From contig OZ024743.1 of assembly GCA_964016885.1 (NCBI GenBank), positions 70,928,001-70,992,000 of the forward strand: a stretch of DNA of 64,000 nt, in the 5' to 3' direction. The notes below the pieces were generated by a model. It was given only the letters and a program-made list of their open reading frames with translations, was not told where the DNA came from and ran no database searches. The position numbers and the translations under genes are program-made. Below, one piece after another: positions 4,146-61,027 of the stretch (position 1 is the stretch's first letter; each line of letters opens with the position of its first letter). This DNA comes from Eledone cirrhosa. Lineage: Eukaryota.

Positions 4146-4180
4146 ACAGAATGTTTCTGGGTATGACCCTTCATCAGTAT
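4146..4180 (-). ncRNA. Degenerate minimal hammerhead motif
   Basis: Minus strand reads ata CTGATGA A GGGT cat ACCC a GAAA cat TC tgt. Stems I and III are weak. Confidence 0.4.
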
Positions 4181-4434
4181 AGTTCACTGTTCACCTGCCA
4201 ACTGTCAGAGCTAATGAAAATATATGATTTTAAAAAAAAAAATATATATATATATCATCATCATCATCGTTTAACATCCATCTTCCACGATTGCATGGGT
4301 TTGGAGCATATATATATATATATATATATATATATATATATATATATATATATATATATATGTAACAAAGAAAGTGTGGTAAGAAACCAGGTGGACCATA
4401 ATGCACCAGAATACTTAGGGTAGTAGAGTCGGTA

Positions 4435-4560
4435 ATAGGAAAAGAGTCAGGATCCCGACGGCTGAGCTCCAGCTGTTTCGACAGCTAGATCTGAACAGTT
4501 CGGATCTAGCTGTCGAAACGGCCGGAGCTCAGCCGTCGGGGGTCCTGATTCTTTTCCTAT
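4435..4560. repeat. Near-perfect ~125-bp palindrome of the same family
   Basis: ataggaaaagagtcaggatcccgacggctgagctcc...ggagctcagccgtcgggggtcctgattcttttcctat. The adjacent 4362-4434 matches the tail at 14365-14445 in reverse orientation. Confidence 0.9.
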
Positions 4561-6333
4561 ATAATATATATATACATACTTCCTGTATGAGCAAGGCATG
4601 GTCAGCCGACCAGACACTGCCCACAACAGGACAACTCGTCTAACCCATGCTAGCATGGAAGAACGGACGTAAACGGTGATGATGATGATGATGATGATGA
4701 TACATATATATATGAGATGAGAGTTTAATTAAATCTGAGGAGCAGGTCAGGCTGCCGTCGAGTTGTTAACACTAATTAGGATCCTGAGCCACCTATCTGT
4801 GAAATGTTTGTAAGTGAGCCCAATCAATAAAACCTAAATATGAAACCTCAATATATTCTTAATATATACACTCCGCTATAGCATTGAGTGCTAACATTTG
4901 TACCTTCTTCAGTAAACCACATATCGACTGTATCACCTAATCTAATAGGAGCGGGTATTGAAAATGTCATGGCTTGGGTAAAAGAAAATACAGGAGGATC
5001 AGTTAATTATGATTTTATTCAATGTATTCCCCTCTCAGATTCACACTCTTCTTACAGAGGTCCTACTTCCCCTGTAAAAGTAACAGCTCTACCCTTTCGG
5101 GATATCCTTAAGCCAGGAACTTTTCAGCACCCCTTCGTATATATATATATATACCGTGTAGGTAACATGGTAAAAAGCTCCCAGTCCACACTGTAAATGT
5201 GGTTGGTGTTAGGAAGGGCATCAAGCTGTAGAAAACCTGCCAGACAGTCCTATACGAACGAAACACGGTCACCCGACCAATCTTGCCTCAAGTGGGACAA
5301 TTCCCGTCTAACCCATCCTAGCGTGGAAGATAGCCGTTAATGATGATGATGATGATATATATGTGTAAACATGAATACACACACACACACACACACACAC
5401 ACACACACGGAAAATGGATGATAAATGATGTTGATATCAATTAATTACAATTTCTGAGCCTGCAACATTAACTTCATTAAAGCCACTAGTGCCCCACTTT
5501 ACTATTTGTTTTTTATGCAAAAGACGTACCTAGGTATTTCCCTCCTGTTATCCTTCTCTATATGTATACGTATGTATGTATATATGTGTATGTCTTTATA
5601 TATGTATGTGTGTATGTATGCATGTATGTGTGTGTACATATGAATGTGTGTATGTATGTGAATATATATCTATGTATGTATGTGTATGTATTTATGTATA
5701 TATGTGTGTGTATGTATATATATATGTGTGTGTGTATATATAAACAAGCTAAAATAACTAGAAATTGTATTAAATCACCCTCATGTTTTTATCTTTAAAC
5801 TCAGTGACTTGGGTATTAATCGACACACATACTCACACATACTTCATACATCATATACACACATACAAACAGATGTATGGTATTCACACATATACACCCT
5901 CACACATAAAGACATACACACTAACAGTCACACACATACCTCCGGTGATGTAATCATAGTCCTGATTTGAGACATCTAACACCCAGACTCAATAACCAAG
6001 GAACTTCAATGATATATGTATGTGTGTGTGTATATATATATATATATATGTGTGTGTGTGTGTATGTTTATATATATGTATGTGTGTGTATATATATATA
6101 TATATATATATATATATATATATATGTGTGTGTGTGTGTGTATGTTTATATATATGTATATATGTGTGTGTGTGTGTGTGTGCGTGCATGCATGTGAGTG
6201 TGTGTATAAATATATATATATCTGTGTGTGTGTATATATGTATAACGGATGAAAAACCCAAAAGCACGAACTTCATCCGTTCCCATGTCGATTCTATTTG
6301 GATTGCCTCGGAAACAACCTTATTATGTAACAA

Positions 6334-6407
6334 GCTGTCTGATGATGACACGACACTCGCACACAGAACAGTGTGGCCAGTGTCGTCATTGAAATATATA
6401 TCACAGC
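6334..6407 (+). ncRNA. Hammerhead ribozyme motif with long stem II and TA-palindromic stem III
   Basis: gctgt CTGATGA tgac ACGACACT..CACAC agaaca GTGTG..AGTGTCGT catt GAAA TATATA TC acagc. The base of stem II is imperfect. Confidence 0.72.
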
Positions 6408-6557
6408 ATTATTATTAAAGGACTTGAACATCTGAAACTACTTCGCTTTTCCTTATTCTATATATATATATATATATATATATATAAAATCAAGGTTTAG
6501 CAAATAAGAAAAAGTTTTAAAATAAATTTTAAAAAGTTCACTATACCTGCTATAATT

Positions 6558-6641
6558 ACCCTTACCGCGCGGTTTCAAGTCTCAAAATAAATGGATAATC
6601 CATGCGGAAATCCATTGAGAAGAAGACTTTCGTCAGAGGGT
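6558..6641 (-). ncRNA. Hammerhead ribozyme motif with long stem II and palindromic stem III
   Basis: Minus strand reads accct CTGACGA AAGTCT..AATGGA..TCCATT..AGACTT GAAA CCGCGCGG TA agggt, with a GUA triplet. Confidence 0.82.
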
Positions 6642-58221: not shown

Positions 58222-58595
58222 ATCATCATCATCATTTAACGTCTATCTTCCATGCTAGCTTGGGTTAGACGGGAATTGTCCACTCGAGGCAAGATTGGTC
58301 GGGTGACCGTGTCTCGCTCGTATAGGACTATCTGGCAGGTTTTCTATGGCTGGATGCCCTTCCTAACACCAATCACATTTACGGTGTGGACTGGGAACTT
58401 TCTACTGTGTTACCTACGTGACCACAATACAGTGTGGACTGTGGGTTTTTTTGTCGTGACACCTACACGATCTCGATCTCATTATCTCATTAATTTGGAC
58501 TGGATGTTGTGGTACCAACTTTACAGAGAAAGGGTGGTGTTGGTGGGAGTGGGGGGATGGACTAGGGGTAGTGGGTTAGGGTGTATATTTGGTTT
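58222..58595 (-). mobile_element. RTE 3' UTR fragment (similar shorter ones at 5153-5355 plus and 62657-62783 minus)
   Basis: Matches 17140-17475. Confidence 0.8.
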
Positions 58596-58697
58596 TATAT
58601 ATATAACATGTATGTGAATATGTCAATAGTTAGATACAGCAGCAGTAGTAGTATTGTAACAGTTGTGACTAACTAGCGATGTTACCTTCTTTAATAG

Positions 58698-58875
58698 GTG
58701 TCAGCAGTAGATAAAGATATTGGTAGAAACAAAGAACTGTCTTTCAGAATCGTTGCTGGGAACAACCAAAGTCTTTTCTCCATCAATAACATCACAGGAC
58801 ATATCAGAGTCAAGAAAATCTTGAAAGATTTTGAAAATCAAGAATTCCTTCTGATAGTTGAGGCAACAGATAATG
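58698..58875 (+). CDS. Fat-like cadherin exon I (178 nt, phase 0-1)
   Basis: Splice sites taatag|GTG and AATG|gtaaat. Encodes VSAVDKDIGRNKELSFRIV...EFLLIVEATDN. Confidence 0.93.
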
Positions 58876-59458
58876 GTAAATATTATAGTGGTGTGGTGTG
58901 GTGTGTGTAGCAGTGTGGTGAGGTGGTGGTGTGGTGTGTGGCGTCATGTGGTGGTGTGGTGATGTGTGGTATCGTGTGGTGGTGTGGTGTGGTTATTGTG
59001 TGGTTGTGGTGTAGTATGTGGGTGGTGTGGTGTGGTGGTGTGTGGTATCGTGTGGTAGTGTGGTGTGGTTATTGTGTGGTGGTGGTGGTGGTGGTGTGGT
59101 GTGTGGGTCATGTGGTGGTGTGGGGTGGTGGTGTGTTTATTGTGTGGTGTCGTGTGGTGGTGTGTGTAGTAGTGTGGTGTGGTGGTGTTGTGTGTAGTAG
59201 TGTGGTGTGGTGGTGGTGGTGGTGTGTGTAGTAGTGTGGTGTGGTGATGGTGTGTTGTAATGTATGGTGGTGTGGTGGCAGTGTGTTGTAATGTGTGTGT
59301 AGTAGTGTGGTGTGGTATGGTATGATGGTGGTGGTGGTTGTGTGTAGTGTGTAGTGAAGTTATTAGTGTTTTTATTGTTATAGGTGGTGGTAGTGGTCGC
59401 CGTGGTGTTGTTGGCAATTATGCTCATCTTGTAATTCCTTTCCATATCTTTATTCCAG

Positions 59459-59680
59459 GTGAGGTCCAACAGATTTCCCGTACCAAAGTCCCTATCAAAA
59501 TTATAACTAAAGCGACCCCATTGTTTGACAAACAATTCTATAACATCAGTGTTCTAGAGAATATAGAAATTCACTCTCCAATTCTCAGTCTTCAAGCTGT
59601 TAGTCCTAATGGCCAAAAATTGGTCTATTCGATCACAGGGGGAGATGTCTTCCATGAATTTACCGTAGACTTCAACACAG
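59459..59680 (+). CDS. Fat-like cadherin exon J (222 nt, phase 1-1)
   Basis: Splice sites ttccag|GT and ACAG|gtgagg. Encodes GEVQQISRTKVPIKIITKATPLFDKQFYNISVLENIEIHSPILSLQAVSPNGQKLVYSITGGD...FTVDFNT. Confidence 0.94.
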
Positions 59681-61027
59681 GTGAGGAGTTTTCTATATTT
59701 ATTTCTTGTATAGTTTGAGGATATTTTTTCAGTCACACTTTCATAACTACTTCTACTTACTTTTGCTTTAAAACAAAAATCAACGGAAACGACATAGACA
59801 AGTGTCATCGATCTTCCAATCTCCTCGCTTATTCTCTCCCTATTATTTGGGACCCGAGAGTAGGTACAAGACGACAAAAAAAAACAATAAAATTAATTTA
59901 ATCTTTTATCGATTATCCACGCTTCTTAATTCTCTTCATACATTCCTTAATACGACATAATTATCCTCAGTACTCAAAGTTTCTTTGGTGTTAACACAAA
60001 CACAGCAAACCTTTATTATTTACCATATACGTATGTCTATATTTTCACTTTTCCTCACATTTTATGTTCACCATCACAATTTCAGTCATTTTTTTTTTTT
60101 AAATGAGTATTATTAGAGTTATTCCCCTTGATTTTGTGAATTATTTCACTACGGTTTTTGTGTATTCGCACTTGTATTTACGTGGATAAATTATTCACCT
60201 TATCGTATAGAGCATATATACCGCTTTAGTCGGCCTATTGGATGCTCCTTCGTATAAGACGCTCCCTCGTTTTACAGGGACATTTTGAGAAGAAAAAAAA
60301 ATTTAGTACATTTCTTCATAAATTTATTAAAAATTATTTCATTGTTTTTTCAGAAACTCTTATATAAGTTCATCATTTTGTCTATATAAATTGTATTGTA
60401 TTACTGTATTAGTAACACTAATAGTAATTCAAACTAAGTTTTTTAACCACGATTGTCTTCACTCTCCGTTCGGCCACCCATCTAGGCTGGAATATATGGT
60501 ATATATATATATATATATATATATATAATATATATTCAGAAGATCCCGTTATGGGTGAAAGCAACGATTCTTTGCTTAAACTTTAATCTGTTATTATAAT
60601 AAATATTTGCTCTACGCGTTTTTATATACATATATATTTTATATATATATATATAATCTTTATCGAGCCCCCTTCGGATTTTAGTCTTCACATTTATTAT
60701 TACTATATATATATATACGCATATCAAAAGGGATCGATATATAATATAGATAAAATATAGAGACAAAATAAATTATATATATAATTTTTTTATCTCTATA
60801 TTTTATATATTTAGTTCTATTTCTCTCATATAGCCACATGATTTTATATTAATATCGATCTCTTTTGATATATAATGCGTTTAGTACATGAACACTTTAC
60901 TATGTGTACAAATGTACGATTGTAAAGGTGATATTTACGCTATCCCCTGGCACATTCTGCACTCCAAAGTTCCTACTTGTAATATTTTCAATCCCTAACG
61001 AAATACAAATTCTGCTCCATTTCACAG

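Follow-up and report, generated by a model that had tools for sequence, protein, structure and literature searches.

A 64,000-nucleotide stretch of the Eledone cirrhosa genome (hereafter the window; G000:C4:70928001-70992000, contig OZ024743.1), with 36.7% G+C and rich in microsatellites, had been described in a first-pass annotation, made from its letters, as holding hammerhead ribozyme (HHR) motifs at 15 sites, and was analysed here together with the 3.0-Gb assembly (1,796 contigs). We consider it highly probable that these motifs are type I hammerhead folds residing in the pseudo-long terminal repeats (pLTRs) of many families of Penelope-like elements (PLEs), present as short, 5′-truncated and often inverted copies beside (TA)n and likely by-products of transposition; the canonical cores are predicted to cleave slowly, and two abundant families in which a deviant core, A13C or U4A, has become fixed probably do not need cleavage for their spread. 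The hammerhead/PLE class itself is known, and what appears new here is its scale, the two fixed deviant cores and a type with a C-C mismatch in stem II.

Hammerhead motifs in the window

The described sequence was present at all 15 coordinates; the minus-strand numbers given earlier mark the 3′ end of each motif, and the C3 or U3 position used here lies 29-78 nt higher. A strict type I descriptor (CUGANGA or UUGANAA, GAAA, UH; stem I of at least 4 bp; stems II and III paired) gave six matches in the window (6636-, 32298+, 34970-, 35369+, 44107+ and 54239-). In the shuffled control that the first-pass annotation had called for, dinucleotide shuffles at block sizes of 64000, 500 and 100 (100 each, 300 in total) gave means of 0.04, 0.12 and 0.08 and a maximum of 2, the reversed window gave none, and ten decoy cores gave a single match, itself a member of a hammerhead family. 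The copy at 21548- fails the descriptor solely through a stem I of 3 bp before a bulge. A scan with the Rfam model Hammerhead_1, also proposed earlier, matched this copy with 31.7 bits (E 6e-4), although below the gathering score of 34; the best 150 of the 331 Rfam matches in the window, mostly microsatellite matches to microRNA (miRNA) models, held no second hammerhead.

The core positions C3-A9, G12-A14, A15.1-U16.1 and H17 are canonical or of the U3-A8 type at 6339, 6636, 21548, 32298, 34970, 35369, 44107 and 54239, which lie in the following cassettes.

6285..6466, plus strand: HHR with C3 6339 and H17 6402, of the long-stem-II AUAUAUAU type, with the C-C mismatch and a weak stem II base
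6487..6649, minus strand: cassette between (TA)n runs; canonical HHR with C3 6636, H17 6563, long stem II and palindromic stem III ACCGCGCGGU
21470..21597, minus strand: canonical small HHR with C3 21548 and H17 21517; best Rfam Hammerhead_1 match (21510-21554)
32254..32405, plus strand: 5′-truncated 3′ end of a Neptune/Nematis-type PLE; U3-A8 core, U3 32298, H17 32327, palindrome ACCGGU, then (TA)n
34869..35570, both strands: single insertion with two HHR-bearing ends in inverted orientation; C3 at 34970- and at 35369+
43982..44306, plus strand: Hydra-type PLE 3′ end; canonical HHR with C3 44107 and H17 44151
54117..54313, minus strand: minimal HHR with an extra A after A9; C3 54239, palindrome ACGU, 4-bp stem I

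Canonical core and stems together were found in about seven window copies, the rest being decayed or carrying a family-fixed variant core; the other eight noted sites deviate from the strict type I criteria, either as single copies or as whole families. Every candidate tested (17 of 17, the 15 noted sites plus 45080- and 45799-) matches at least one other genomic locus. The 6636 family has 1232 genomic candidates, the best 40 scored being 97-100% identical, and the 44107 cassette has 1,122, the best 40 scored being 98-99% identical and many of them in inverted pairs. Copies of this cassette share the 3′ end at 44211, and only some ends continue into a tail (44212-44306), with (TC)n(TA)n beyond it; no RNA data set was listed as containing the cassette. 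The insertion at 34869..35570 has a tail of about 100 bp on its plus end only, with (TA)n at both sides.

The flanks agree with the embedding in (TA)n described earlier, with a run of (TA)4 or longer within 250 nt 3′ of 14 of the 17 candidates, compared with 35% of random positions (for three of the 17 the nearest is an internal run, true (TA)n lying also within 250 nt). That several motifs are followed by AATAAA is likewise correct: it occurs within 160 nt in 7 of 17, against a background of 15%, two of the seven being one inverted pair in which AATAAA overlaps stem I. Although AATAAA is enriched near the motifs, no poly(A) tail was seen that would mark it as a poly(A) signal.

Pairing of the stems and covariation

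The first-pass annotation had stated that the stems differ in sequence yet still pair, and this was reproduced for the long-stem-II type, in which 59 of 60 stem I and stem II cells pair across five families, compared with 46.5 after exchange of the 3′ halves; a value of 59 was attained in 14 of 2,000 permutations, about the rate of the identity permutation. The pairs switch among U-A, C-G, G-C and A-U across families, and in five of five divergent families of this type stem II has a C-C mismatch at its fourth position. In the contigs of the 44107 family three of 20 common substitutions fall within the motif, one in a loop, one turning G-U into G-C and one in a terminal pair, a distribution that may mildly favour a selected fold. 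The palindromic stem III proposed earlier is fully self-complementary in 15 of 19 clusters, with a predicted self-duplex of -2.2 to -19.9 kcal/mol; the 40579 and 60537 types have a true stem III hairpin instead.

Association with Penelope-like elements

An origin in PLE pLTRs, as the first-pass annotation had suggested, is upheld by open reading frames (ORFs) for reverse transcriptase (RT) and GIY-YIG endonuclease in four families, by (TA)n flanks, by inverted pairs and by one-sided tails. A PLE protein could be tied directly to four of the 12 families to which the noted sites belong, namely the C13 (A13C) and 32298 families (Neptune/Nematis-type) and the 44107 and U4A families (Hydra clade). 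The window copies of the C13 and U4A families are:

14457..14710, minus strand: solo pLTR end of the C13 family; U3 14618, (TA)n at its 3′ end
48685..50122, both strands: composite PLE insertion, a minus arm plus an inverted plus arm, truncated; U3-A8 plus C13 core
48912..49388, minus strand: GIY-YIG endonuclease open frame with a CX4CX2C linker, corresponding to residues 597-747 of the family's 784-aa RT-endonuclease (RT-EN), 97% identical
60535..60655, plus strand: Hydra-clade PLE 3′ end with the fixed U4A core; C3 60537, H17 60577

In the composite insertion the minus arm joins a pLTR end (48685-48930, HHR U3 48838) to the endonuclease fragment, and the plus arm, inverted, reaches 50122 (HHR U3 49928) and alone carries a 41-bp tail. 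The endonuclease family of 48912-49388 has 14,591 genomic candidates; 17 of the 150 scored fall in 784-aa open frames, and the 16 that were fetched are all intact, with an average nucleotide identity of 99.5%. At loci L117 and L243 RT and GIY-YIG lie in one ORF (RVT_1 and GIY-YIG above the Pfam cut-offs at L117). L117 has a pLTR-ORF-pLTR structure with a period of 4,642 bp, 300 identical nt and a hammerhead in both repeats, and L116 is a tandem structure of 4,734. The 784-aa protein is probably of the Neptune or Nematis type, judging from motifs common to both clades. Its frame has no start codon at its beginning, and a possible coiled-coil ORF1 was observed ahead of RT-EN, in an upstream frame that begins about 230 nt after the hammerhead (L117:484 onward; L239:4088-4861).

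For the 32298 family a sister RT-EN, 35-63% identical to that of L117, lies upstream of the motif in four of five long loci. In the U4A family RWR, DKT, CxCX5C and YRDD were found between inverted motifs in five of eight fetched loci, and the Hydra-clade motif set occurs at L257-L259, L261 and L262 (U4A) and at L234, L235 and L238. One of two long loci of the 44107 family has CxCX5C, YIG and YRDD between inverted motifs (L233; endonuclease and YRDD only), and a family related to it has an RT of Hydra-clade type in three of five loci. One RT resembles Hydra-1_Obim, as judged by eye, and this resemblance, together with the repeat landscape, would point to a coleoid cephalopod. The Naiad features of an N-terminal GIY-YIG and DKA were absent, the endonuclease being C-terminal and the motif DKG or DKT.

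The window copies and their families have the hallmarks of PLEs, that is 5′ truncation, an inverted 5′ copy and one-sided tails of 41 to about 100 bp, and the cassettes match the published PLE insertion pattern of a common 3′ end, a tail and inverted pairs (Fig. 2 and section 6 of PMC8557442); published tails are of 30-40 bp. Copies at 60.69 Mb of contig C5, considered as a full PLE, have no RT ORF and proved to be a local tandem duplication, about 4 kb apart; this duplication (G000:C5:60686269-60694223; L091, L092) holds nested hammerhead cassettes of three families at one (TA)n site.

Judging from work on the Anolis PLE (PMC11167929), the PLE endonuclease would nick AT-rich DNA, and reverse transcription would start inside the RNA at two sites, corresponding to the end and the tail end, which here would lie about 15-200 nt downstream of the hammerhead. 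With such a start nearly every insertion, however short, would copy the hammerhead, and an inversion would copy it twice. In the families with a canonical core cleavage would be slow or weak, occurring mainly as dimers via the palindromic stem III or with the help of a protein (as PMC4209133 would suggest). Truncation or inversion within a few bases of stem I was observed at 6649, 60535 and 40582 in the window and at L070-L072; these several copies suggest frequent stops or template switches of RT at the hammerhead.

Genome-wide abundance and family diversity

Core patterns were counted in the genome with reversed-pattern controls. The pattern with long stem II and an AUAURUAU stem III gave 84,666 matches (control 179), the U3-A8, ACCGGU pattern 20,518 (control 19), the C13 pattern 6,168 (control 0), the U-flanked short-stem-II pattern 38,493 (control 512), with A4 in 90 of the 100 matches listed, and a fifth pattern 23,950 (control 1,573) on the forward strand alone; the reverse count of this last pattern holds duplicates, and its forward excess was doubled for the sum. 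This amounts to about 190,000 matches in 3.0 Gb, of which about 150,000 have a canonical or U3-A8 core, so that the repertoire is as large as the first-pass annotation had supposed. With about 65 matches per Mb this genome may rank with those animal genomes examined that are densest in hammerheads, and several would be expected in most of its long pre-mRNAs. The axolotl genome is about ten times larger than this one. Retrozyme hammerheads number 126,247 in axolotl and about 5,000 in mussel (PMC7229834), and published minimal PLE hammerheads about 2,000-9,000 per genome, counted by different search methods.

A relaxed descriptor applied to 0.95 Mb of fetched loci, which are hammerhead-enriched and partly overlapping, gave 367 matches against two in the reversed sequence. 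These comprise 174 distinct sequences in 36 clusters, 19 of them with at least two distinct sequences, in agreement with the many distinct families claimed earlier. The description as a ribozyme repertoire was right in that the motifs are real, and overstated activity, because about half of the noted copies are decayed or non-canonical. As for its being uncatalogued, the deviant cores and the C-C stem II type were not found in the papers covered; already published are minimal hammerheads of PLEs, the U3-A8 core and, from Octopus bimaculoides, one Hydra PLE (Hydra-1_Obim) together with its hammerhead (PMC4209133, PMC8557442).

Two abundant families with a fixed deviant core

In the C13 family GCAA replaces GAAA, as seen at 14618-, 48838- and 49928+, all with a stem I of 3 bp. 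C13 is present in 6,168 of 6,212 exact genomic matches; another base occurs in 44 (10 A, 11 G, 23 T), about as many as mutation following insertion would be expected to give. In this young and intact family GCAA was found in 35 of 35 copies of the fetched loci, stem I consists of three A-U pairs and the hammerhead fold has a predicted energy of +0.4 kcal/mol. At L232:523 a C13 copy that is more diverged and differs in its stem II loop hints that the A13C change predates the current burst.

In the U4A (60537) family CAGAAGA was found in all 100 listed of 18,927 exact matches, and the family retains a 5-bp stem I, stems II and III and the rest of its core. The window copy has the CAGA core and is cut off 2 nt before it, most of the 5′ strand of stem I being gone. 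Rare canonical sisters with different loops account for two of 100 matches listed. Natural canonical counterparts of the deviant cores are found in the 32298 family and at C1:5347261. Four apparent U4 copies, which overlap inversion junctions, were left out of the canonical sisters; inversion junctions in the U4A motif at G000:C1:747966, 4182335, 4528475 and 15872075 recreate CUGAAGA by template switching, with stem I replaced.

The type I hammerhead requires an invariant A13 and U4, and the C13 and A4 families depart from this. Substitution of A13 led to a strong loss of activity in classical mutagenesis. In deep mutagenesis low activity was seen for every single mutant of the CUGA turn (PMC9901934). 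The two families are predicted to cleave poorly or not at all, and since they have reached thousands to tens of thousands of copies despite this, cleavage is likely dispensable for their spread.

Active natural core variants, rescued by tertiary contacts, dimerisation or a PLE protein, would be a different explanation of the same motifs. It would fit the retention of the 5-bp stem I, stems II and III and the remaining core bases in the U4A family, the substitutions in stem II of A4 subfamilies, which keep pairing (UCCC/GGG to UCCU/AGG, two loci), the low activity that some natural core variants retain (PMC3088659), and the Anolis PLE hammerhead, which cleaves only with protein (PMC11167929). 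The mutagenesis results speak against it, as do the 3-bp A-U stem I of the C13 family and its predicted fold energy. We regard such rescued activity as rather unlikely, and spread with little or no cleavage would be the more probable course for both families.

More tentatively, and with somewhat more doubt than confidence, we propose that two independent PLE families of different clades, with about 6,000 and over 19,000 copies, have each fixed a core substitution while keeping the three-stem fold, so that the hammerhead would be kept as a structure (for RT binding or initiation), or else U4A and A13C would be new working cores, and that a new long stem II with a C-C mismatch exists beside them in about 85,000 copies. 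No report of a fixed A13C or U4A core was found in the hammerhead literature covered; Lunse et al. 2017, on PLE variants and outside this coverage, may report such cores. The long stem II with a C-C mismatch was not found in the published PLE hammerhead sets examined, and the word ribozyme is absent from the main text of the O. vulgaris repeat paper.

Comparison with known elements

The window motifs resemble published minimal PLE hammerheads in having type I topology with a short stem I and a palindromic stem III, an additional base following A9 (here in 54239) and a U3-A8 core, and also in occurring mostly as single truncated copies, with opposite-strand pairs 100-700 bp apart and many families per genome. 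In contrast, the readable Fig. S3 representatives of the published set all have CUGA or UUGA and GAAA, none having CAGA, GCAA or a long stem II with C-C.

With Hydra-clade PLEs, including Hydra-1_Obim (Craig et al., 2021, PMC8557442), the elements have in common RWK-like, DKT, CxCX5C, CxxC and CxH motifs, a C-terminal GIY-YIG without CCHH and insertion into (TA)n; a hammerhead near the 3′ end, often of the form CUGAUGA-U...U-GAAA with a stem III of 3-4 bp, recalls the 40579 and 60537 types. The Hydra hammerheads in File S2 of the same paper are all CUGA and have GAAA, whereas one Hydra family here has a fixed CAGA; one octopus family is given there, with another hammerhead sequence, whereas some families here have a long stem II and a AUAUAUAU stem III. 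L117 resembles Neptune/Nematis PLEs in GLKF, DKG, RT, the CX4CX2C linker, a C-terminal GIY-YIG with CxxC inside, the pLTR-ORF-pLTR structure and microsatellite targets, and the young family differs from them in its U3-A8 plus C13 core. Naiad PLEs also target (TA)n and have inverted truncated copies, tails and high copy number without a canonical hammerhead (PMC8557442), but their endonuclease is N-terminal and the motif is lacking, whereas in the elements described here the endonuclease is C-terminal and the fold is kept with a single change in the core.

Weighing the evidence and the alternatives

Several points weigh against hammerhead-bearing PLE ends as a general explanation. The genome counts are core-pattern matches with reversed-pattern controls, not individually checked for pairing. 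The covariation comes from five related families (of 16 clusters, the five with at least two members were used), by permutation of 3′ halves, and the U3-A8 set (three clusters) has no covariation beyond the null (21 vs 20.0). The predicted monomer minimum is a hammerhead-compatible fold only for 44107; nine others lie 1.9-4.2 kcal/mol above the minimum and 60537 lies 6.6 above it (54239 left out), these gaps being taken before any dimer energy. No ORF link was found for eight of the 12 families (6636, 21548, 54239, 40579, 4146, 4735, 6339 and 34970) within 1.5-kb flanks or few loci: for the 6636 family, none of 29 loci matched the Neptune-type protein within 1.5 kb, and locus L095 has no RT ORF. 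Because no PLE ORF was found near them, some of these eight families may be non-autonomous. Lastly, the window holds about twice the genome mean, eight motifs against 3.7 expected from the five patterns per 64 kb (Poisson P 0.037, a value inflated by patterns that were derived from the window and by paired copies that are one event and not independent). Enrichment specific to this gene was rejected on these figures, and the earlier word dense holds across the genome and not for this gene.

The first-pass annotation had left a choice between solo pLTRs and retrozyme-like cassettes. Non-LTR retrozymes consist of non-autonomous tandem repeats that give circular RNAs via paired hammerheads, and they too have type I hammerheads in very high copy number (Cervera and De la Pena, 2020, PMC7229834). 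Comparable arrays exist elsewhere in this genome: a retrozyme-like tandem array at G000:C1:5738326-5752444 (L244, L245) has 31 copies of about 466 bp, each with a hammerhead, and ends in one inverted copy, as in PLE insertions, and others with repeats of about 423 and 487 bp lie at C1:9969550-9972122 and C1:5541135-5543703. Direct copies 469-483 bp apart in the 6636 family, with no ORF found, and the 45080/45799 copies 719 bp apart point in the same direction. Against this, non-LTR retrozymes are tandem repeats of 150-450 bp, whereas the window copies are dispersed truncated PLE ends, with no short tandem array among the cassettes; PLE ORFs were reached from four families, and both inverted pairs and one-sided tails are typical of PLEs. 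Retrozymes have themselves been proposed as PLE derivatives (bioRxiv 10.64898/2026.07.22.740005), which would make them a sub-case for some families. We thus judge retrozymes an improbable source of the window cassettes, and 5′-truncated, inverted PLE 3′ ends as the part of the earlier alternative that stands.

Retention by the host, in order to cut or regulate the cadherin pre-mRNA, is very unlikely. Three canonical copies (32298, 35369 and 44107) lie on the gene strand, and 6339 and 44107 have the AUAUAUAU palindrome in common, which makes cross-family dimers conceivable; nevertheless, the density is close to the genome mean, the 17 candidates are seven sense and ten antisense relative to the gene, many copies are decayed, and copies are near-identical to dispersed family members, which marks the window copies as recent insertions. 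The motifs are likely by-products of transposition and do not belong to the cadherin gene as such. Matches arising by chance in DNA of low complexity and high AT content, for which the short core and the copies failing the strict criteria might be cited, are ruled out with near certainty by the shuffles, the reversed controls, the family structure and the covariation, all of which are contrary.

Decayed and newly listed copies

The remaining noted copies, and those added here, are as follows.

3969..4237, minus strand: decayed copy, with the core near 4177 intact
4697..4868, plus strand: copy, diverged (73-87%), from an older family that has a long stem II and GAAACGUUC; stem I is not formed in this copy
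14235..14365, inverted arrangement, newly listed: palindrome of two inverted 3′ halves of an HHR family (L141), truncated inside stem II
34313..34436, inverted arrangement, newly listed: inverted pair of decayed 40579-family copies
40512..40660, minus strand: HHR of the type with U-U/short stem II and a 4-bp stem III; C3 40579, H17 40541
44983..45830, minus strand, newly listed: two direct copies of a further HHR-like family; C3 45080 and 45799, 719 bp apart
58035..58105, minus strand, newly listed: decayed copy of another HHR family, with GGAA for GAAA

In the 4146 copy an 11-bp deletion relative to L003, L035 and L081 has taken out stem III together with the cleavage site, and the GAAA region is damaged in both 45080- and 45799-, which have a relative in L135. 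The 40579- copy carries A9C, and other copies of its family are canonical; its long stem I was rejected as structural evidence, being partly an inverted copy, and the true stem I of the family has about 6-7 bp and differs compensatorily between subfamilies. Further remnants of the 40579 family lie at 24949-24992+, 27261-27328- and 53919-53968-, those of the L141 family at 4451-4541 and 13325-13398, and a homology pass added one at 54376-54494. The near-perfect palindromes at 14235-14365 and 4451-4541, which Rfam scores as miRNA families, consist of inverted 3′ halves from a repeat family that carries a hammerhead. PLE inversions of this kind could be mistaken in annotation for miniature inverted-repeat transposable elements (MITEs) or miRNAs, and double-stranded RNA would form from them in introns.

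Host gene and neighbouring elements

The cadherin gene of the window, which we take to be Fat-like from its number of cadherin repeats and the exon layout of Fat, is represented by:

28323..59718, plus strand: cadherin-repeat exons at 28.3, 41.5, 42.6, 46.9, 48.0, 54.5, 55.7-57.2, 58.7 and 59.3 kb

No cadherin exon was detected in the window below 28 kb. Judging from the Fat exon layout, the six motifs in that part would lie in a long intron of the gene; as exons were detected only at 28.3-59.7 kb, we infer this position rather than observe it, and the earlier placement of all motifs in introns of one Fat-like gene is borne out for the exon-bearing part.

Other mobile elements were also observed. 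An 838-aa open frame with RT and a PHD finger, of an RTE-like long interspersed nuclear element (LINE), occupies 50714-53230 on the plus strand and has decayed relatives at 17639-20697 and 32897-33301; a broken CR1-like LINE (endonuclease and RT pieces) at 14664-17032 on the plus strand abuts the solo pLTR at 14710; and a MITE-like inverted repeat at 50141-50432 is inserted into the (TA)n run that follows the tail of the PLE.

Implications

The cadherin gene is incidental to the finding, which concerns PLEs. A hammerhead is nearly universal in PLEs with a C-terminal endonuclease, yet mutation of the HHR had no effect on PLE insertion in vitro (PMC11167929) and Naiads thrive at high copy number without a canonical one (PMC8557442). 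This genome offers natural matched pairs of canonical and deviant cores in sister families with thousands of copies each, and one deviant-core family also has intact recent ORFs; the role of the hammerhead would thus be testable in vitro and by intron strand bias. If the structural explanation of the fixed A13C and U4A cores is true, they would be natural in vivo evidence that PLEs keep the hammerhead as a structure rather than for cleavage.

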